A stretch of DNA of 33,641 nt from an uncultured Gammaproteobacteria bacterium (GCA_965230945.1 OZ246397.1:504284-537924), one strand, 5' to 3'. Counted from the first letter of the stretch, positions 1 to 12,465 are shown. Numbers and translations: made by a program. The notes: generated from the sequence alone by a model not told the origin.

Positions 1-3000
1 GCCTAAATCTCCGTCATTGAGGTTATAGATTTTGGAAAGACCGCTGGTGGGGATTAAAGTTAAATTAGGGGTGCCAGAAATTGAAGCTATTCCTCCCATA
101 GTAAGATCATCAATATTGATTAAATCATTCGTGGCAAAAGAGACATTGCCGGAGGCGGCATCGATAGTAATATCCCCGGAACTGTTGTAAATCATTGATT
201 CGGAATTGTACAAAGCCAAAATGCCGTCTTTGTCCAAGGACATTTTTTCATTAGTATCGTTCCAAATCGAAAGAAGTTTAGCTCCGGCAGTGGTATAGGC
301 TGGCGTTATCAATTTAAAGCCAATAGCGTCAGCAGCGTCAGCCACAGTTGAAGTAAAGACACCAGAAGCTGTGGTTAACATACCAGTGGAGTCAATAGCT
401 AATTTTTGAGTGCCATTAACCGCCAGCTTTAACAGATTGCCAGAAAAACCTGTCTCAACATTAACCAATAAAGCATCTTCTCCTCCAGTTAAACCGCTAC
501 CCAAAAGGGTCGTTCCAACATTTTCAAGTCTAGCGCTGGGATTAGTTGTCCCGATTCCCACCAGGCCATCATCCCTCACAAACAAAGCCGAAACTCCATT
601 ATCTTGAATATCAAAATCGCCGCTGGATGAGAGGTTAATGATGGTATTGGCCGTGCCATTGTTATTGATAGTAAATGCATTATTACCTTGAGTAAGGGTA
701 GTGTCTTGAGTTAAAGTTCCCCCTAAAGAAACAACATTAAGAAGTCTGGTTAAACCGCTGGTAAAGGTTAAGGCATATTCGTAATCTGTTCCAGCAGTGG
801 CAATTGATAATTGTCCAGTTCCTTCCGCCGCTTTGATAATACCACCAGCGTTCAGGGTGGAGAAGGTGATGTCGCCGGAAGAAGTAATTCCCGTCGCCGC
901 GGCAATAGCACCAGAGGAGTTGACTTGGAACTGTGAGGATGAACCGACAGAAAGAGCGGCAAGAGGATTAGTGGTGCCAATTCCCACATTCCCATTGACA
1001 TACAAATCAGCGTTACCAGCATCAGCTGCCCCAATTGCCACATTATAATCAGTAGAGTCTGGGTAAAGATTATTGCCAGATAGCGTCCAGGGACCGCCGG
1101 AAGCAGAGATATCCACCCAGGAAGGATTCGCTCCTGCCCCTCCGGTTTGCAAAAGATAACCAGCGGTGTCTGGAGCTAAAGCGGCCATTGTTCCTGCCCC
1201 AGAAAAGTAAAGAATATTCCCTTGAGCCGTGGAACCAAAATTTTGGCCTGTTCCCCCATAGGTTGTTTCTAAGGTTCCCCAAGTCGGCGCTCCTGCCCCG
1301 GCGCTTAGCAAAGCCTGACCTGAAGTGCCAGCACTGGTAAAGGTTAAGGTATTAGAAGCTCCATAGCCGATTCCGCCAGCAGTAAAGTTGGAACCAACCA
1401 AAGAGGTGGTGGTGCCACTTCTTCCTAGGGTTAAACCTGTTTGGGTGGTCCCGCCGATGGTTAAAGTCCCGGCGGCGCGAGTGTCAATCGTCCCCCCGCC
1501 TTGAACCAAAAGATTACCGTTGACATCCAAAGCCGCCCCCGGAGTGGTTGTCCCAATTCCGACATTTCCACTCTCAAAGATGGCGGCGTAGTTGTTGGTG
1601 CCACCACTGGCAGCGGCATATAATCCCACATTAGTGGTTGAAGCCCCGGTTTTTGAGAAATAACCAGCGTAACCGGTGCCTGTCACCTCTCCAGTGTTGG
1701 TGACCGAAAGCCCGTGAGAGCCATCAGTGGTAGGATTGGTTTGGCTAAGGACCGAAATGTTTTCCGCCCACTGGCTGGCGGTGCTATTCCAGCGAAGGGT
1801 GGAGTTGTTGACTGTGCCCTGGGTTAATGACCCTCCGCCTCCGGCCAAATTCCAGCTGTCACCGTCCCACATCGCTGCCGTGGTATCACCGACTTTGACG
1901 GTGGAGCTGTAGAGGGTGAAGGTGGTGGTACCGGTATTGGAAAGATAGACCAGCCGACCGGCGGTAGTATCAGTGGGATCAGGGAGGGTGATGGTTTGTC
2001 CTGAGGTTGTTTGGGCCAGGTTGAAACTAGTATAGATGTCAACTGTGGTTGCGGCTGTCCCGATATCACCGCCACTGGCGAGATCGGCAATTGACAAAGT
2101 GCCAAAACGGGTTGAGGCATTAATTAGGGTATTGCTTCGTTGAACGGCAAAAAGATTGGTGTTGTTATTATCCCTAACAGCAAAAACTGAACCTGAACCG
2201 TCAAGGTCGACAAAGAAATTGGCATCAGTAGCCGTATCAGCCAAATTAAATTGAATATCCCGAGCGTTGGTGGTGGTAATGGTATTGCCGACATTGTAAG
2301 CTTCCTGAAGACCGCCGCCGACACTAGACCAGGAGCCGCTTTTATCATAATACAAAAGATTGTCTGAGGTGTTGTAAAGTAGAGCCCCTGTTCCCATTGA
2401 AGTCGGGGTGCCGTTGAATCTTCCCAGCTGAAGTTGACCGCCAAGACCTAAGTTGCCCGAGACTGTGGCGCTGCCGGTTATAGTGATAGTATCTGTAGAA
2501 GAATCGCCTAAAGTTGCCTCACCTTTGAGGTTTAAATTTTCATCTACTGTTAGGCTTTTGCCTAGGCGGAGGTTGCCGGCAAAGCGAGCATTTCCTGAAG
2601 AGATATACAAAGCATAGGCATCAGTGGTTCCTCCTTTTCGCGAAAGCGCGAGAGTGTCGTAACCAGAAGCAGTTTTCCCGGTTTCATCAAGAATCACGGT
2701 GGCACTATCAACACTGGCTGTAAGACCAGATTTTTTTATTTGAAAATAATCAGGGCCCCCTTGGTCAATCTTAAAAATACCCGAGTCCTGATAATAACCG
2801 CTAATACTGGAAAGCCGAGCGGCTTTTACGTTCCCTTGAGCATCGACGCTGAATTTGCTGGTTGGCGTTGAGCCAGAAGCTAATTCTAAAAGATTGTAAC
2901 CGGTGGTGTCAGAAGCCACCTCACCATAATACAAAGCGCCTTGGGTTAAATTAGCGTTTTGGGCATTGACAAAGTTTCCTTCATCTCCAGAAAAGATGAG

Positions 3001-3912
3001 ATTTAGCACTCCAGACCCATCAGGTGCTAAAGTAATGTTGCCATCCGAGCCAGTGGGGGTGATGAGGGTAATTGCTTCTCCTTCAAGAGCAATAGTTCCT
3101 TGAGTTGATTTAATTTTAGGCGATGAAGCCGCCAGCAGAAGATTACCCCCTTGAGTGAGGACGGGAACCATGTTACCTTCAGGCTCTTGCGAAGGAGGAA
3201 AACCACCAAGGTTTAAGGAATCCGAGACATGGGCGGCAGTGGAAAGGGGAGTTCGGGGGGTAAGAGTTTGATTGTCAACCACCACTTCCAGATAAAGTCT
3301 TTCATTTTGGAAGAAAAGCCGGGAAGGGAGTTCCTTATCGCCCCGGGTCGTGTCTCCCACTGGGGCTTGAAATTCGCCTTCGGGGTTGGGCTCCAGTTCC
3401 CAAGTTTTTGATTCCCATAAGGGCTCGTCCTCTTTTTCTTGACTGTAAATTTTAAAGATTATTTTGGCTTCTTCAGTAATTGGTTCACCGCCGGGACTTA
3501 GCAGTTTACCACGGAAATTGACAATCCAGGGAGAATAGGTGGCGATGGTTTGGGTGGTAATCTGACCAGGAAGAGGCAATTTGGGAGATATTTTAGGAAA
3601 AGAAGGAAAGAAACGGCGGGAAACAAGAAGAGCGAGGATGATAACTAAGGTAAAAGAAAAGCAAAGTTTGATAATTTTTGAAGCTACGATCCTGGATTGC
3701 AAACCTGAAATACCTCGGACGGTGGGACTCCTCCGAGGTGAAATCTCATTTTCCCCAAGATAGCCTTCCTTTTGGGCATAATCGCAAAATTTTCGAATTG
3801 AAGATAAACGCCGCTTGACGGTTGAATCAGAAAGATCAAGCTTTTTAAGATGTTCAAGGTAGGCATCGACTTTCTGTTTAGTTATTTGCTTTAAGATTGA
3901 TTTATGATTCAT
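1..3912 (-). CDS. Giant membrane-anchored fibre/adhesin-like protein, partial (C-terminus lies beyond the window start). N-terminal integrase-type SAM-like module, one TM helix, then more than 1200 aa of Gly/Thr/Ser/Asn-rich ectodomain
   Basis: Absent from the ORF track because no stop codon falls inside the window. I checked every plus-strand triplet in frame 1 from 1 to 3930 and found no tta/cta/tca (minus-strand stops). The first in-frame stop upstream is at 3931-3933 and the first ATG is at 3912-3910 (MNHKSILKQITKQKVDAYLEHLKKLDLSDSTVKRRLSSIRKFCDYAQKEGYL). TM helix LCFSFTLVIILALLVS lies at about 3619-3672. Three VGIGTT(T/N)P motifs occur near nt 1545-1575, 971-1000 and 541-570, and a YGGTG motif is present. 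Confidence 0.85.
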   Translation of the reverse strand, partial: MNHKSILKQITKQKVDAYLEHLKKLDLSDSTVKRRLSSIRKFCDYAQKEGYLGENEISPRRSPTVRGISGLQSRIVASKIIKLCFSFTLVIILALLVSRRFFPSFPKISPKLPLPGQITTQTIATYSPWIVNFRGKLLSPGGEPITEEAKIIFKIYSQEKEDEPLWESKTWELEPNPEGEFQAPVGDTTRGDKELPSRLFFQNERLYLEVVVDNQTLTPRTPLSTAAHVSDSLNLGGFPPSQEPEGNMVPVLTQGGNLLLAASSPKIKSTQGTIALEGEAITLITPTGSDGNITLAPDGSGVLNLIFSGDEGNFVNAQNANLTQGALYYGEVASDTTGYNLLELASGSTPTSKFSVDAQGNVKAARLSSISGYYQDSGIFKIDQGGPDYFQIKKSGLTASVDSATVILDETGKTASGYDTLALSRKGGTTDAYALYISSGNARFAGNLRLGKSLTVDENLNLKGEATLGDSSTDTITITGSATVSGNLGLGGQLQLGRFNGTPTSMGTGALLYNTSDNLLYYDKSGSWSSVGGGLQEAYNVGNTITTTNARDIQFNLADTATDANFFVDLDGSGSVFAVRDNNNTNLFAVQRSNTLINASTRFGTLSIADLASGGDIGTAATTVDIYTSFNLAQTTSGQTITLPDPTDTTAGRLVYLSNTGTTTFTLYSSTVKVGDTTAAMWDGDSWNLAGGGGSLTQGTVNNSTLRWNSTASQWAENISVLSQTNPTTDGSHGLSVTNTGEVTGTGYAGYFSKTGASTTNVGLYAAASGGTNNYAAIFESGNVGIGTTTPGAALDVNGNLLVQGGGTIDTRAAGTLTIGGTTQTGLTLGRSGTTTSLVGSNFTAGGIGYGASNTLTFTSAGTSGQALLSAGAGAPTWGTLETTYGGTGQNFGSTAQGNILYFSGAGTMAALAPDTAGYLLQTGGAGANPSWVDISASGGPWTLSGNNLYPDSTDYNVAIGAADAGNADLYVNGNVGIGTTNPLAALSVGSSSQFQVNSSGAIAAATGITSSGDITFSTLNAGGIIKAAEGTGQLSIATAGTDYEYALTFTSGLTRLLNVVSLGGTLTQDTTLTQGNNAFTINNNGTANTIINLSSSGDFDIQDNGVSALFVRDDGLVGIGTTNPSARLENVGTTLLGSGLTGGEDALLVNVETGFSGNLLKLAVNGTQKLAIDSTGMLTTASGVFTSTVADAADAIGFKLITPAYTTAGAKLLSIWNDTNEKMSLDKDGILALYNSESMIYNSSGDITIDAASGNVSFATNDLINIDDLTMGGIASISGTPNLTLIPTSGLSKIYNLNDGDLG

Positions 3913-4049
3913 AATTCGTAAATTTTTTAGCTATTGCTAAAAGGTGTATAATTAAACTGCGGGTTACTTAGTTGTTTTTGAATAAAAAACTTCTAAAAAC
4001 AAATTTTGGCTCCCCCCAGATTTGTTTGGTGGCCCGCACCAGCTATTTT

Positions 4050-4532
4050 TTAAGCTTCTTTTAACCAGCCCAAGAAATGTCTTAGGTCAGATAGGTAGTT
4101 TTTAATGGTAATGGGACTAATATTTTCTTCCACTAAGTTTTCTTTAAAATTTATAAGGATTTCCTTTTCTTTTTGTGCTTGTCCTAGGGGAGTTTTAATT
4201 GCTTCCTTATCCAGATTGGAAACTTCAAGGGCGGGATTATTATGGAGCCAACCCTGGCTTTGGATAAAAGAGCCAAATTTTCTTAAGGTTGAAAAACGTC
4301 GGTTGATGGTGGAAAGGGGAGTTTTCTCTTTGATTTGATCTTCCTTGTATTCGTTAATGGTTTCTTTGGTAAAAAGACCCAAGATGGCTTTACCAGCAAC
4401 TTGATATTTAATACCCGTTTTTTTATTTAGCCAGGTAAAGAAATTATTAATATCGGCAAGGTAATTTTTCCTTGTTACTGGAGAAATTTTTTGAGTTTTA
4501 AGATAGTTTTTAAAAAGGTCAGGCAGAAACAT
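4050..4532 (-). CDS. Small protein made of three integrase N-terminal SAM-like (core-binding) modules, with no catalytic domain
   Basis: 160-aa ORF with three repeats of the helix-pair signature: ISPVTRKNYLADINNFFTWL, PLSTINRRFSTLRKFGSFIQSQGWLHNNP and ISPITIKNYLSDLRHFLGWL. This is the pattern of the tyrosine-recombinase core-binding domain. The ORF is far too short to hold the R-H-R-Y catalytic domain. Confidence 0.7.
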   Translation of the reverse strand: MFLPDLFKNYLKTQKISPVTRKNYLADINNFFTWLNKKTGIKYQVAGKAILGLFTKETINEYKEDQIKEKTPLSTINRRFSTLRKFGSFIQSQGWLHNNPALEVSNLDKEAIKTPLGQAQKEKEILINFKENLVEENISPITIKNYLSDLRHFLGWLKEA

Positions 4533-4535
4533 AGT

Positions 4536-4652
4536 TTAAATAAAAAGCCAGAGAAAAACACTAAGGAAAATCAAAAGAGCAAAGCCAGCTTCGGCAACTT
4601 CACTTAGGTGATTTTGTTTTTCAAAGGTGTAGTTTTGGCTGTATTTAATCAT
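4536..4652 (-). CDS. Candidate 38-aa membrane peptide, first gene of the operon
   Basis: Hand-translated as MIKYSQNYTFEKQNHLSEVAEAGFALLIFLSVFLWLFI with a hydrophobic C-terminal helix. Its TAA stop (4536-4538) lies 3 nt before the ATG of the 4050-4532 gene, which suggests coupling. It is below the track's length cutoff and has no homology support. Confidence 0.3.
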   Translation of the reverse strand: MIKYSQNYTFEKQNHLSEVAEAGFALLIFLSVFLWLFI

Positions 4653-4702
4653 TTTTGTTTTTCCTGCGGTTAGTTAATCTCCGCAAAATTGTTTAGGTTT
4701 AA

Positions 4703-4728
4703 ATTATACATGATTATACAAAATTATA
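4703..4728 (-). promoter_or_regulatory. Three phased TATAAT boxes (minus strand) upstream of the small-ORF/SAM-like/giant-protein operon
   Basis: The minus strand reads ACTATAATTTTGTATAATCATGTATAATTT. TATAAT hexamers lie at 4703-4708, 4713-4718 and 4723-4728, spaced 10 nt apart and 50-75 nt upstream of the ATG at 4652. No clear -35 element was seen. Confidence 0.25.
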
Positions 4729-5503
4729 GTTCTCTTACTACTATAATAGAAATTTTTAGGTTCTGTCAAGAGGCCAATTTTGACCCGTCTGATGTAGTTA
4801 GACCAGGTTTAAAAGGACCTGTTTTTTCTCCGCATCTATGTTTTCATGCCCCTTTTCATTTATGTTAATTACCGCGAAAATGGCTAAAATGATATCTCAA
4901 AGTAAATCATAATAGATCATCTTTTAACCGAAGGCAACTCTCAGGAAAGCAAGGACTACATGATACAATATGATATATTAAGGTTTTTCTACGGTCTTGA
5001 TAACCTATAATAAATAGATAGGAATGATGATTAGGTTTGGGAAAAAGACCTTTAGTTATTTTTAAGAAAATATTTCTGATTTTTCTTTTCTCCTTTTTTC
5101 TTTTTTATGGTTTTTTTGACAAATTCCCTTATTTTTTCTATACAGTCCTAGAGTATTTTTATTAGTGTTTGAATTGGCAATTGGATGTTTAAGTGCTAGT
5201 ACTTTCAGGTGTTTAAAAAGCCCTTTATTTAGCGAAAAAACATTACTTATCTAAAAAGAAATCTATTTCTTAGGGGATAACTGCTTTTATTTTCTCTTTT
5301 GTCCTCTAGTAGTGCTTAAAACTGCTTGTTTAGAGCTTGTTTATAGGTAGAGAAGTAGAGAAGGATGATTTTGAGTTATTTTTTTAAGACATTTCGGTTT
5401 ATTGGCATTTAGAAGTGGAAATTGTTTAATAGGGGTTAATGGGAAGATAAAATATTTCAGCAAACACCAACAACAGAGGTTAAAAAATCAAGGAAGAGAT
5501 TTA

Positions 5504-6265
5504 TTACGGCTCTAGTTTTTCTCTTAATTGTTTTACTTTCTTTATGGTTGTCTTATCTATTTCTTCTTTAAGCTTTTTACCGCTCCTTAAAAGTTTATAA
5601 GCCCAGTCTCTAATTTTTAGCAGTCTGTCTTTTTGTCTGATGCTTAGATGGCCAACATCAGCCAGGAGTTGGCTGGTCTGGTCAAGAATTTCGGTTAATC
5701 CTTTTTTTAATTCCAAGCAGGTCCATAAAAGAATATCAGTTTCTTCCTTTTCAATTGATTCTTCCATAATTTCTTCTTCTTCCTCTAGGATCTTTATTTT
5801 TTCCTCATCCTTTAAGACTCTTAGGTATTGCTTGCCAAAGAACATGGCTACGGGAGTGACAAGGATTAAGGAAGACAGTTGAAGAAGCTCTTTTAAAGGC
5901 TCTTTTTCCGTAGGAGTAAACAAAAAGAAAAGCACTATGGTAATGGTTAAAGAAAAAGTGATGAGCGGTTCAAAAAGCAAAGCCAGTCCAAACATTAGAA
6001 AGTAAAGAAGAAAGAAAAGAGGTGAGTTTAAACCACCAGTGGAGATGACTAAAAGTAAAATGATCATCGTAAAGACAGCCGCATCAATGGTGCGGTTGAT
6101 TTTATGAGGATGGTGGCGGGCTATGATCTGATTGACAAAGAAGAAGACAAGGAAAACGGCCATTAACTGCAGGTTGTAATAGGAAAGTTGGGGATTATTA
6201 GTCCAAAAGAAAGCCAAGATAACAGCGAAAATCAAAAACAGACTATGGAGCAGGAATTTGGCCAT
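5504..6265 (-). CDS. Polytopic membrane protein with a charged coiled-coil C-terminal tail (sensor-like, no kinase domain)
   Basis: 253-aa ORF. It has about 5-6 hydrophobic segments, including STGGLNSPLFFLLYFLMFGLALLF. The tail is Glu/Lys-rich and helical (EEKIKILEEEEEIMEESIEKEE ... DVGHLSIRQKDRLLKIRDW). No recognisable catalytic motifs. Confidence 0.6.
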   Translation of the reverse strand: MAKFLLHSLFLIFAVILAFFWTNNPQLSYYNLQLMAVFLVFFFVNQIIARHHPHKINRTIDAAVFTMIILLLVISTGGLNSPLFFLLYFLMFGLALLFEPLITFSLTITIVLFFLFTPTEKEPLKELLQLSSLILVTPVAMFFGKQYLRVLKDEEKIKILEEEEEIMEESIEKEETDILLWTCLELKKGLTEILDQTSQLLADVGHLSIRQKDRLLKIRDWAYKLLRSGKKLKEEIDKTTIKKVKQLREKLEP

Positions 6266-9770: not shown

Positions 9771-9808
9771 AAAAGAAAGCAAGTCGGGTTTATATTCCGG
9801 CTTTTTTG

Positions 9809-10390
9809 ATGGCAGAAACTTTTTCTTGGGAGAAATTCTTAAAGGAATACAAATGGCAGGTTCTTCTTGGCTTTTTAGGTTTAATTTTTGTTATTAGTAG
9901 TATTTTTCTTCTTAATCAAACGGATAATTCGGGTATTCAAATTATTCCCATTGAAGAGGAAGCAGAAGGTAAAACAATTTTCGTTGATTTACAGGGAGCG
10001 GTTGAAAAACCTGGATTGTATGAATTAGCCGCCGAGGCTCGCTTGAATGACTTGCTTATTAAGGCCGGTGGGCTTTCAGCAGGTGCCGATCGTGATTGGG
10101 TAGAGAAGAATTTAAATTTAGCTCAAAAGCTTATTGACGGAGCCAAGCTTTATATTCCCGAAGAGAAAGAGCTGGGAGTACAAGACTCAGTTTTAGGTAG
10201 TGTAGGCGATAGGATCAATATTAATAGGGCTTCTTTAAGCGAGTTAGATTCTTTATGGGGAATAGGTCAAAAAAGAGCCGCCGATATTATTGCCAATCGT
10301 CCTTACCAAACGATTGAAGAATTAAAAGATAAAAAAATCATTCCCCAGAATGTCTTTCAAGAAATTAAAGAAGAGATTTGTGTTTATTAA
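9809..10390 (+). CDS. comEA: ComEA-type DNA receptor (SLBB domain plus helix-hairpin-helix)
   Basis: N-terminal TM anchor (VLLGFLGLIFVISSIFLL). SLBB-like segment IFVDLQGAVEKPGLYEL...RLNDLLIKAGGL. C-terminal HhH region ININRASLSELDSLWGIGQKRAADIIANRPYQTIEEL. The track starts at TTG 9806; the adjacent ATG 9809 is more likely. Confidence 0.9.
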   Translation: MAETFSWEKFLKEYKWQVLLGFLGLIFVISSIFLLNQTDNSGIQIIPIEEEAEGKTIFVDLQGAVEKPGLYELAAEARLNDLLIKAGGLSAGADRDWVEKNLNLAQKLIDGAKLYIPEEKELGVQDSVLGSVGDRININRASLSELDSLWGIGQKRAADIIANRPYQTIEELKDKKIIPQNVFQEIKEEICVY

Positions 10391-11639
10391 TACTCAGGTT
10401 AAACTTCTGCTTGTAGTTTTGCTGTTATTTACTCCTTTCTATTTTTTTCGCTTTTATCATTTACAAAGATATAATTTACCTGAAGAAAAGCGAGTGAAAA
10501 TTAAAGGAAGGGTAATTAAACAACCCTATCTTAAGGGTTCATATCAGATCATAGAGTTAAATTCGGTTTTAATAAGAACACAGCGTTTTCCGGGATATTT
10601 TTATGGTGACCAGCTAGAGGTTACTGGCAGATTGGAAAAACAAATGCTAAACCCCTTTCAGACCCGTTATTTAGCGAATTTTCCAACCATTGAGAAGATT
10701 GAAGAAAAACAAAATTTAATTAATAAGGTAGGGCTCAAGAAATTTCTTTTTAAAACTAGAGGACAAATTGAAAGGAAGATTGGCGGCTTTTTACCTGAGC
10801 CTCATGGCAGTTTGCTTCTAGGAATTCTCTTTGGTATGAAAACTCAGATCCCTCAAGATTTTTGGCAGGATTTGCGGAAAACAGGTACCTTGCATTTGGT
10901 GGTAGCTTCAGGACAGAATGTATCTTTGGTAGCTGGTTTTTTGATGGCCAGCTTGATTCATTTTCTAGATCGCCGTAAAGCCATTCTTATGGCTAATTTA
11001 GGCATTCTTTTTTATGTTTTAATGGTGGGAGCTGAACCGCCAGCAGTACGAGCAGGAATAATGGTTTCTTTAGCCTTTTTGGGTCAGCTCTTTGGCAGGG
11101 AAGGTAAGGCGCTAGTTTTTCTTTTGGCCAGCGTCTTGATAATGCTTTTAATATCACCTTTGGTACTTTTTGATGTCGGTTTTCAACTTTCTTTTATGGC
11201 CACCTTGGGTATTTTAGTTGTTTATCCACTTTTAAGAAACAAAAGCAAAATTTTTAATTTTCCTCTTTTAGGTGATGGTTTAGCCGTAACGATAGCCGCT
11301 CAATCAACAACCTTACCAATTCTTTTAGTAAATTTTGGTCAGGTAAGTTGGTTGTCACCGCTGATTAATGCCTTAGTTTTGCCCACCATTCCTTTCATTA
11401 TGGTTTTAGGCGGGGGAATGCTGGTTTTAAGCTGGTTTAGCAGTCTTTTAACTCAGCTGCTAGCTTACTTTGCTTGGTTGTTCTTGAATTACTTTGTTAA
11501 GGTGATAGAGGTTTTTGGGAATTTGTTCTGGGTAAGTTATGAATTTAAGCAAATATCTGGTTGGTGGGGAGTTGTTTACTATCTGGTTTTCGCTTTAATT
11601 CTTTTAAGATTTTACAAAAGATTAAATGAAAGAAGCTAA
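10350..11639 (+). CDS. comEC: ComEC/Rec2 competence channel, membrane part only (OB-fold/DUF4131-like region plus Competence domain)
   Basis: 429-aa polytopic ORF. The Competence-domain motif is GTLHLVVASGQNVSLVAGFL. An N-terminal OB-like segment (VKIKGRVIKQPY...GDQLEVTGRL) is present. It has no metallo-beta-lactamase domain of its own. Confidence 0.88.
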   Translation: MSFKKLKKRFVFINTQVKLLLVVLLLFTPFYFFRFYHLQRYNLPEEKRVKIKGRVIKQPYLKGSYQIIELNSVLIRTQRFPGYFYGDQLEVTGRLEKQMLNPFQTRYLANFPTIEKIEEKQNLINKVGLKKFLFKTRGQIERKIGGFLPEPHGSLLLGILFGMKTQIPQDFWQDLRKTGTLHLVVASGQNVSLVAGFLMASLIHFLDRRKAILMANLGILFYVLMVGAEPPAVRAGIMVSLAFLGQLFGREGKALVFLLASVLIMLLISPLVLFDVGFQLSFMATLGILVVYPLLRNKSKIFNFPLLGDGLAVTIAAQSTTLPILLVNFGQVSWLSPLINALVLPTIPFIMVLGGGMLVLSWFSSLLTQLLAYFAWLFLNYFVKVIEVFGNLFWVSYEFKQISGWWGVVYYLVFALILLRFYKRLNERS

Positions 11640-12465
11640 TTTATTAAAGAAGCCATTTTTCTGGCTTTTTTTGACCTTTGTTTTAATTTTAATGTTTGTT
11701 TTATCCTTACCTGATGGTAATCTTCATTTGACCTTTTGTCAGGTGGGGCAGGGAGATGCCATTTTGATTAGTTTTAAAAACAATCAGATTTTGATTGATG
11801 GGGGACCTGACAAAAAAGTTTTAGATTGTCTTTCTAAAAACATGCCTTTTTGGGATCGAACCATAGAGATGGTTATTCTTACCCATTCAGAAAAAGATCA
11901 TTTAACGGGTTTAATTGATGTTTTTAAACGTTATCAAGTAGAACAACTTGTTTCTAATTCAGTTTCTAATAATTCTTTGGCTTTTAAGGAATTTCAAAAA
12001 GCGGTTTTAGAAGAAAAGGCTTTGTTTTATGCACCCCAAAAAGGAGATAAGTTTTTAGTTGATGCCGTTCAATTTGAAGTTTTATGGCCTGAATATAAAG
12101 TGACTGATAAAAATTGGCAGGGGAATAACCTCAATGAGATTTCTATTGTCCTTGAGTTTTCTTTTGGTAAGTTCGATGTTTTATTTACCGGAGATATTTC
12201 CAGTAAGATTGAGCAGCAATTAGAATTGTCAGAAGTTGAAGTCTTAAAAGTTAGTCATCATGGCAGTAAATTCTCTACCAGTGAGGAATTTCTAGAGAAG
12301 ATAAGGCCAGAATTGGCCATTATTTGTGTAGGTAAGAATCGATTTGGGCATCCGACTACTGAAGTTCTTAAGAGGTTAGAAAAATACTTAATAAAAACTT
12401 CAAGAACAGACGAGGGAGTGGTCAGGATAGTCAGCGATGGATATGGTTACATAGTTAGCCACTGA
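11626..12465 (+). CDS. Membrane-anchored metallo-beta-lactamase-fold protein, equivalent to the C-terminal nuclease domain of ComEC but encoded as a separate ORF
   Basis: TM anchor FFWLFLTFVLILMFVLSL, then CQVGQGDAILISF...LIDGG, THSEKDHLTGL and LKVSHHGSK, the ComEC-type MBL signature. It overlaps the upstream ORF by 14 nt in the +1 frame. A TAA at 11623-11625 closes this frame immediately upstream of its ATG. Confidence 0.85.
   Translation: MKEANLLKKPFFWLFLTFVLILMFVLSLPDGNLHLTFCQVGQGDAILISFKNNQILIDGGPDKKVLDCLSKNMPFWDRTIEMVILTHSEKDHLTGLIDVFKRYQVEQLVSNSVSNNSLAFKEFQKAVLEEKALFYAPQKGDKFLVDAVQFEVLWPEYKVTDKNWQGNNLNEISIVLEFSFGKFDVLFTGDISSKIEQQLELSEVEVLKVSHHGSKFSTSEEFLEKIRPELAIICVGKNRFGHPTTEVLKRLEKYLIKTSRTDEGVVRIVSDGYGYIVSH

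Follow-up and report, generated by a model that had tools for sequence, protein, structure and literature searches.

What is a DNA-binding domain of tyrosine recombinases doing next to the membrane helix of a giant surface protein, at a locus where no recombinase is to be found? The question is raised by three co-directional open reading frames (ORFs) on the minus strand at one end of a 33,641-nt stretch of DNA (GCA_965230945.1, OZ246397.1:504284-537924; the whole stretch analyzed is called the window), which is titled as coming from an uncultured Gammaproteobacteria bacterium. They encode a micro-protein of 38 amino acids (aa), a small protein of 160 aa and a giant protein of more than 1304 aa that is cut by the window end. 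An initial annotation had placed integrase core-binding (CB) modules in both the small and the giant protein, and had read the former as a paralogue beside the latter. Our results change that picture insofar as the two genes share a single CB domain, which is cut in the loop between its helices B and C and is made as one chain in relatives.

The explanation that we consider best is, taken as a whole, reasonably probable. According to it the window would encode a member of a family of giant single-pass, tail-fibre-like surface proteins that is specific to Microgenomates, ultra-small bacteria of the Candidate Phyla Radiation (CPR). Members of this family would carry arrays of one to three CB domains, without a catalytic domain, at their cytoplasmic N-terminus. 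In the window the array is split between two genes; it would be reassembled by docking of their products and used to couple the fibre to DNA.

Two genes encode one core-binding domain

By fold and by sequence signature, the modules belong to the CB domain family (PF02899, Phage_int_SAM_1). The Pfam profile matched the small protein with 56.4 bits (E = 3.8e-15) and the first 100 aa of the giant protein with 35.3 bits (E = 1.4e-8), at a curated gathering cut-off of 22.3 bits, and integrase SAM-like families were the only matches at the N-terminus of the giant protein. The NCBIfam models of XerC and XerD aligned with both proteins only through the N-terminal ~100 residues (model positions 3-104), with scores of 57 and 43 bits that lie below the whole-protein cut-offs of ~330 bits. 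The recombinase catalytic domain (PF00589, with its R-K-H-R-H pentad and tyrosine nucleophile) was found in neither of the two window proteins, nor in 12 further window ORFs (194-579 aa) that were scanned, nor in 5 complete giant relatives, 10 relatives of ~300 aa and the Pfam lists of ~140 relatives. As the tests for this defining domain were negative, the proteins do not qualify as tyrosine recombinases. The initial annotation had thus been right on both counts, the presence of integrase CB modules and the lack of a catalytic domain in both proteins and the scanned ORFs. Two of the checks it had named point the same way, in that the profile matches to integrase CB families are significant and none of the orthologues examined has an intact catalytic domain.

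The domains do not, on the other hand, fall into the modules first proposed. The small protein holds 1.5 CB domains, one complete (CB1) and the first half of another (CB2), and terminates 3-4 residues past helix B' of the latter; the remaining 0.5 domain stands at the head of the giant protein. When the tail of the small protein and the head of the giant protein were joined, they gave one contiguous Pfam match over positions 3-83 with 68.1 bits (E = 8.5e-19), and this rejoined CB2 outscored the intact CB1 (35.1 bits). The initial annotation had counted four copies of a helix-pair motif, three in the small protein and one in the giant protein. The four occurrences are real, but they are not equivalent modules: in profile coordinates, helix B of a CB domain accounts for copies 1 and 3, and helix D for copies 2 and 4. 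Together with the fused relatives described below, these coordinates establish one domain in two genes, and the earlier view of a soluble tandem-repeat paralogue beside a giant protein with the same module has to be abandoned.

Structure prediction agrees with the rejoined domain. For the joined sequence, AlphaFold2 reached a predicted local distance difference test score (pLDDT) of 73.8 without an alignment and 90.7 with an alignment of 45 rows, the latter being a confident tandem of two CB domains, both at 92-98. The sole dip (83) falls on the loop at the junction, which connects helix B' (residues 140-160) to helices C'/D' (166-208). In a Foldseek search of the PDB, the top neighbors of the model were the CB domains of Brujita Int, lambda Int, 3nrw, IntI, XerD and XerA. 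The Haloarcula integrase N-domain (3nrw) gave a TM-score of 0.75 with a root-mean-square deviation of 1.9 Å and lambda Int (2oxo) a TM-score of 0.71, and 1a0p and 5hxy were also retrieved; the probability was ~1.0, yet the E-values were only 0.1-0.4 for this small fold. A PDB search with the small-protein profile returned nothing at E <= 0.001.

The best PDB sequence match of the family profile was chain 14 of 9i5v, a 401-aa "RaiA" of the P. gingivalis ribosome with a CB-like N-terminus (E = 1e-5). This chain appears to combine a CB-like N-terminus with an HPF-like ribosome-binding segment. As a sign of contact between CB domains and ribosomes it was rejected, since only 34 of its residues are modelled and these fill the tRNA-binding site to which HPF binds.

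The small protein has 242 close relatives. Among the 120 listed, most are 140-210 aa long and a few are shorter fragments; where a source is named, it is Microgenomates or Patescibacteria. A scan of species-representative genomes gave 209 matching stretches, of which 80 loci were fetched, and a profile search of 1.84 billion representative proteins gave 343 clusters (50% identity) at E <= 1e-30 and 1271 at E <= 1e-10. A protein search with the first 160 aa of the giant protein returned 2 matches only, because the word index was too insensitive, and its relatives were gathered through the loci and a full-length query.

The relatives fall into four forms. In form A, two complete CB domains, a linker and one transmembrane (TM) helix precede the giant part in a single chain (L068, 828 aa; P0125, 1869 aa; L064, 2086 aa; P0276, 3903 aa), and in form B one CB domain and a TM helix do so (L058, 2079 aa). 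Form C is the arrangement of the window, with 1.5 + 0.5 CB domains. In form D, small proteins of ~300 aa (P0142, P0146 and P0150) hold 2.5 CB domains and end right after helix B of the last one. The fused giant proteins span 828-3903 aa, with one or two complete CB domains ahead of the TM helix, and in fused members the tail-fibre-like part beyond that helix takes up 650-3900 aa.

In a census of 84 species-level loci, 19 were fused and at least 55 were split, with a downstream giant gene that starts in the second half-domain; the remaining loci came without downstream sequence. The breakpoint lies in the same loop in all 30 of the 30 split loci that were aligned, and again in the small proteins with 2.5 domains. 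Few stretches of the small protein are as well conserved as its trailing half-domain, and all family members end at the same point. Adjacency of the two genes, which the initial annotation had proposed to survey, is kept in nearly every related locus with enough sequence, and in 12 loci the genes overlap or sit no more than 10 nt apart, as coupled cistrons do. With 48% identity to the joined window sequence, the fused protein P0125 is nearer to it than many split relatives, and it has the same promoter block upstream; fused and split forms are thus interchangeable over short evolutionary distances. Comparison of these loci shows the split to be a conserved gene fission inside a domain, and decay or artefact is ruled out.

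Because the half-domain is kept whatever the count of full domains that precede it, it fits the behavior of a docking joint. On the strength of this and of the models, we think it quite probable that the two half-domains fold together non-covalently, so that the small protein would dock on the cytoplasmic tail of the giant protein and restore the CB1-CB2 tandem.

The giant protein, the gap and the promoter

The three minus-strand ORFs, with the coordinates and gaps originally given for them, were recovered by ORF calls and translations (Table 1). The ATG of the giant protein at 3912 is the first start downstream of several in-frame stops. The 38-aa membrane peptide is conserved within the clade of the window: homologous micro-ORFs directly precede the small gene in five relatives (L001, L009, L013, L015 and L018) and share the pattern M.KYSQ.Y.FEK...AE.G.A.LIF..F.WLF, and a 38-aa gene was also called at that place in L004.

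Table 1. Features of the split CB unit in the window (positions counted from the first nucleotide of the window)
Feature	Position	Strand	Remarks
Promoter/operator block of the unit (putative)	4662-4832	-	upstream of 38-aa gene; aligned across 13 loci
TCTAACTACATCA	4790-4802	-	first element of block
-35 TTGACA	4764-4769	-	second element; followed by 18-nt spacer
-10-like TATAGT	4740-4745	-	after 18-nt spacer
Three TATAAT boxes	4703-4728	-	10-nt spacing; short hairpin follows, ahead of ATG 4652
38-aa micro-protein ORF	4536-4652	-	first cistron; hydrophobic helix at C-terminus
160-aa small protein ORF	4050-4532	-	3-nt gap after 38-aa ORF; stop codon 4050-4052
CB1, complete (helices A-D)	4233-4532	-	small protein residues 1-100; Pfam positions 2-82 of 83 = residues 5-93; AlphaFold pLDDT 92-98
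CB2, first half (helices A', B')	4053-4187	-	small protein residues 116-160; C-terminal 44 aa = Pfam positions 3-35 only
Giant protein ORF, >1304 aa	1-3912	-	137-nt gap after 160-aa ORF; runs off window end
CB2, second half (helices C', D')	3748-3912	-	giant protein residues 1-55; Pfam positions 36-83 of 83 = residues 3-50; pLDDT 92-98
Single TM helix, putative signal anchor	3619-3675	-	giant protein residues 80-98; hydropathy 2.58 over 19 residues
Presumed extracellular tail-fibre-like part	1-3618	-	giant protein residues 99 to >1304; cut by window end
Candidate small RNA gene, antisense to operon	3947-4052	+	between CB genes; covariance, strand-specific wobbles
TATAAT box of RNA candidate	3947-3952	+	exactly 5 nt upstream of element in 11/13 loci
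Structured core, ~80 nt	3958-4038	+	closing stem P1, hairpin with C-rich loop; covariance model
Terminator-like hairpin and T-run	4026-4052	+	promoter/terminator-type scan of window

That an N-terminal module stands ahead of a TM helix in a giant fibre-like protein had been noted from the outset, and the helix at residues 80-98 confirms it. The N-terminus presumably lies inside the cell, because there is no signal peptide, the N-terminal domain is folded and basic, and the modules of the fibre are extracellular in nature. The TM helix and its outer flank (G.G.Y.QFF.K...AYP...GR.LSFQGRL) are conserved in 49 relatives. Full-length relatives of the window protein measure ~2240 aa (P0123, 2245 aa; P0124, 2238 aa). 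Among giant relatives more generally, collagen triple-helix repeats, DUF2341, BNR, Peptidase_S74, inteins and matches to phage tail-fibre profiles were found, the latter in L058 at E = 2e-16 (phrog_18345) and E = 4e-13 (phrog_9942); the giant-protein fragment in the window matched none of the phage tail-fibre profiles.

A common C-terminal domain was seen in the giant relatives that were read (P0123-P0139, P0145). Its motif ends in ...F(N/S)WWI(I/V)N, with the variants ...NYWLVQTK and ...FNWFIVN, and it is present irrespective of protein length or middle repeats; the window stops before it. At L005 (8637-16513), a giant relative of 3868 aa combines BNR and Peptidase_S74 with intein insertions (an Intein_splicing match and Hint-like ...VAHNT motifs).

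The gap between the two CB genes holds a candidate small RNA gene that is antisense to the junction. A covariance model built from 13 loci found one match per locus, at this junction only, in 15 loci including two on which it had not been trained; it scored the window element at 58.6 bits and matched nowhere else in the 727 kb scanned. Stem P1 is 97.5% paired and contains 4 compensatory pairs. Two further pairs alternate between C-G and U-G in 6 of the 15 sequences, and these wobbles pair only on the antisense strand. Rfam gave no match for the element at either the gathering or a permissive threshold, and some split loci lack the element. The antisense small RNA that it would encode may modulate the junction. 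A dispersed repeat or mobile element was ruled out by the single, junction-only match per locus in the 727 kb, and an integron attC-like site, suggested by a flanking TTAAC motif, was rejected as the 3' consensus is absent.

In relatives, whole genes are found at the split site. An ORF for a four-helix bundle (23S_rRNA_IVP-like) lies in the gap of five loci (L008, L020, L021, L030 and L031), and one for an NYN-domain nuclease stands between the small and giant genes of four (L009, L010, L011 and L033); the junction thus behaves as an insertion hotspot. Loci of the Roizmanbacteria type have, in place of the RNA element, a conserved micro-ORF or motif (...Y(Q/H)SL....(F/C)DPA.EG.PY), as at L005 (8510-8626) and in L021, L025, L029, L035, L062, L067 and L077.

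The block upstream of the 38-aa gene is probably a sigma-70-type promoter for all three genes of the unit. A promoter scan of the block gave 11/12 matches. Within it, TCTAACTACATCA is followed, ahead of the 18-nt spacer, by CTCTTGACA. The block is conserved over 13 loci whose small proteins share just 45-70% identity, and variants of it were found across the whole family; in the window, exact matches to both motifs occur only here. The block could act as an operator, as sigma-dependent pause sites or as a target of the CB array. No simple correlation was seen between the number of TATAAT boxes and the number of CB domains.

Around the unit, the other window ORFs that were scanned are housekeeping genes (leuS, comEA, comEC, argS, M16 peptidases, mreB and ribosomal protein L1), and the CB-fibre locus adjoins leuS, comEA and comEC. 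On the plus strand (9806-12465), comEA (SLBB + HHH) adjoins comEC, which consists of two overlapping ORFs, one with the Competence domain (10350-11639) and one with the metallo-beta-lactamase domain (11626-12465). In ~27 relatives the CB-fibre locus is likewise flanked by ComEC fragments, so that the neighborhood is syntenic. Immediately upstream of the unit, on the minus strand (5504-6265), lies the gene of a multi-pass membrane protein of 253 aa, whose tail is a charged coiled coil. No family matched this protein, and its gene occupies the same position in only three other loci (L017, L040 and L064). Records of metagenome-assembled genomes that contain this Microgenomates-specific locus (L007-L009, L012, L013 and others) are often titled "uncultured Gammaproteobacteria", Nevskiaceae or Bathyarchaeia, and such titles look like placeholder or wrong taxonomic labels.

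Possible roles of the split array

Three rival readings can be weighed against the evidence given above. That the 160-aa protein is an independent soluble paralogue of three helix-pair modules, working beside a giant protein with a fourth copy, is in our view very unlikely. The four motif occurrences are indeed real, and the two genes form distinct cistrons, and a possible terminator and a small RNA gene lie in the gap. The profile coordinates, however, give 1.5 + 0.5 domains where this reading calls for 3 + 1 modules, a helix pair A-B or C-D alone makes an incomplete CB fold, and the fused relatives show the pairs to be halves of one domain. Recoding, by which the two ORFs would be made as one polypeptide through intron-like splicing, ribosomal bypass or a frameshift, could explain why the gap falls between halves of one domain and why a compact conserved RNA structure, its ends brought together by P1, sits exactly in that gap. 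We nevertheless hold it to be highly improbable, and an intron, bypass or recoding across the gap was rejected, since the wobble pairs assign the structure to the antisense strand, the element lies anywhere from 30 to >600 nt away from the giant ATG, with NYN or four-helix-bundle genes between in relatives, and many split loci are free of the element and have overlapping or abutting stop and start codons; there are also several stops in frame upstream of the giant ATG, and Rfam showed no intron family match. A third reading, in which the genes are decayed remains of a tyrosine recombinase or an artefact of assembly or frameshift, would accord with the best profile matches being to XerC/XerD N-termini and with the name "site-specific recombinase XerD" that some databases give to members. 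Against this, the members are full-length and strongly conserved across the 242 close relatives, 209 stretches and 343 clusters, independent assemblies have the identical end point, and none of the members examined carries a catalytic domain, which leaves this reading with a negligible probability.

The mechanism that we propose builds on what the sequences show. In the lineage of the window the gene has been cut within the last CB domain, at the loop that joins helices B and C. The 160-aa protein supplies CB1 and helices A-B of CB2, and the giant protein helices C-D of CB2, the TM helix and the fibre. The half-domains would join non-covalently, with the small protein docking on the cytoplasmic tail and rebuilding the tandem array that relatives make as one chain. 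As to the use of the array, we would prefer a ToxR-like membrane-tethered DNA-binding unit that acts at specific sites, such as its own conserved promoter; an array that serves as a passive nucleoid tether is less favored.

Three lines of evidence make DNA binding plausible. The residues K22, N23, Y24 and D27 of helix B and N77, R78, S81 and R84 of helix D are invariant or near-invariant in the family, and we take them to match positions that are a signature of CB domains in recombinases. The modules have a basic median isoelectric point of ~9.5, and the promoter of the unit contains phased repeats that may serve as targets, with candidate sites at 4703-4802. That the rebuilt array binds DNA, and by this couples the inner end of the fibre to it, is in our estimate slightly short of an even prospect.

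The explanation as a whole should be interpreted with some caution, since several points weigh against it. When isolated, the CB domains of known recombinases are weak DNA binders, the conserved residues may have a structural role instead, and a basic isoelectric point is common among CPR proteins. Reassembly was modelled by AlphaFold solely as a covalent fusion of the halves. The genes of the window's clade lie 137 nt apart, or >600 nt with inserted genes in relatives, and such spacing means that strict translational coupling is absent in this clade. The local positive-inside count around the TM helix is non-discriminating (1.9 vs 2.0 K+R), and the window does not contain the C-terminal ~940 aa of the giant protein.

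The main alternative, which is somewhat unlikely, is that the CB array has been exapted as a cytoplasmic protein-protein platform, for oligomerization or anchoring of a trimeric fibre, for docking during export or pilus assembly, or for holding the giant nascent chain, and that the half-domain is a docking interface and nothing else. CB domains make protomer contacts in recombinase tetramers, and the half-domain interface is retained whatever the number of complete CB domains that precede it. A genomic argument in the same direction comes from more than 50 of the 84 loci, where secreted immunoglobulin (Ig)-like proteins (~300-500 aa), proteins of ~335 aa that have both a signal peptide and a C-terminal anchor, and a Big_1 protein of 138 aa encoded on the opposite strand are found 1-5 kb upstream of the CB genes (L003, L005, L009, L014, L018, L020, L033, L048, L055, L058 and ~40 more). 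Such a set of secreted and membrane-anchored proteins is reminiscent of the Pam pilus operon of CPR bacteria, beside which a "tail fibre-like protein" has been reported (bioRxiv 10.64898/2026.03.03.709456). The resemblance is one of gene types; the upstream pilus-like proteins matched no PDB sequence at E <= 1. On the other side, the most conserved residues are not confined to core hydrophobics but are polar or basic (N, R, K) and lie in helices B and D, as would be expected of a DNA-contact surface, no partner protein was identified, and the window locus is without pilus-like genes.

How does the split array compare with known systems? In tyrosine recombinases (XerC/XerD, XerA, lambda Int, IntI and Cre), the CB domain binds the core DNA site. 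The window proteins share with them the CB fold and its sequence signature, but here the domain precedes the TM helix of a giant surface protein, no enzyme is attached, and the last copy can be split between genes. Two sequential CB domains are known from RitA recombinases of "recombinase in trio" elements (Smyshlyaev et al. 2021, PMC8138268). The likeness lies in the tandem, which appears here after joining the halves, or directly in fused relatives, whereas RitA keeps its catalytic domain and is a recombinase of mobile elements, and the tandem described here belongs, without an enzyme, to a membrane protein encoded at a syntenic chromosomal locus. The parts follow one another as in ToxR, CadC and TcpP, bitopic membrane-tethered regulators with an N-terminal cytoplasmic DNA-binding domain, a single TM helix and an extracytoplasmic part, with an orientation that we infer for the window protein. 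In these regulators the DNA-binding domain is an OmpR-type winged helix and the outer part a small sensor, in contrast to the four-helix CB domain and the fibre of 1000-3800 aa found here. For the split itself, the closest likeness is to the split inteins of DnaE, natural intradomain gene fissions whose halves reassemble. In both cases one fold is encoded by two genes, both halves are under purifying selection and fused versions exist in relatives; unlike split inteins, the CB halves have no splicing chemistry and would merely form a non-covalent docking joint.

In full-text literature searches, neither CB-only domains on membrane or surface proteins nor such a split turned up, and the preprint on the Pam pilus makes no mention of an integrase-like domain (bioRxiv 10.64898/2026.03.03.709456). 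The initial annotation had been unable to map the architecture to any characterized system, and none is described in the literature searched. What we report is a known domain joined to a known fibre class in an arrangement for which we found no description, together with a conserved gene fission within the domain; its function is one that we infer. A more far-reaching idea, which we offer as rather unlikely in its full extent, is that of a trans-envelope device specific to ultra-small episymbionts. A giant fibre in contact with the host would end, on the cytoplasmic side, in CB domains derived from recombinases and joined through the split domain to a subunit that is expressed separately. This CB array would bind chromosomal sites, for instance its own promoter with phased TATAAT boxes, and would couple surface contact physically or regulatorily to DNA, with the antisense RNA tuning the ratio of the parts.

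Database names of members include "site-specific recombinase XerD", "site-specific integrase" and "hypothetical", and such names mislead callers of mobile elements and prophages. The fused, split and 2.5 + 0.5 versions amount to a natural experiment in fragment complementation and could supply a small docking pair for protein engineering.

In conclusion, the family would clearly illustrate how the DNA-binding domain of a recombinase can be exapted while its enzyme is left behind, across hundreds of species-level lineages. The antisense RNA and the conserved promoter add concrete regulatory elements in organisms for which almost none are known. With a CB domain at the cytoplasmic end of what are probably some of the largest surface proteins of Microgenomates, the finding bears on how these ultra-small bacteria attach to or sense their hosts.

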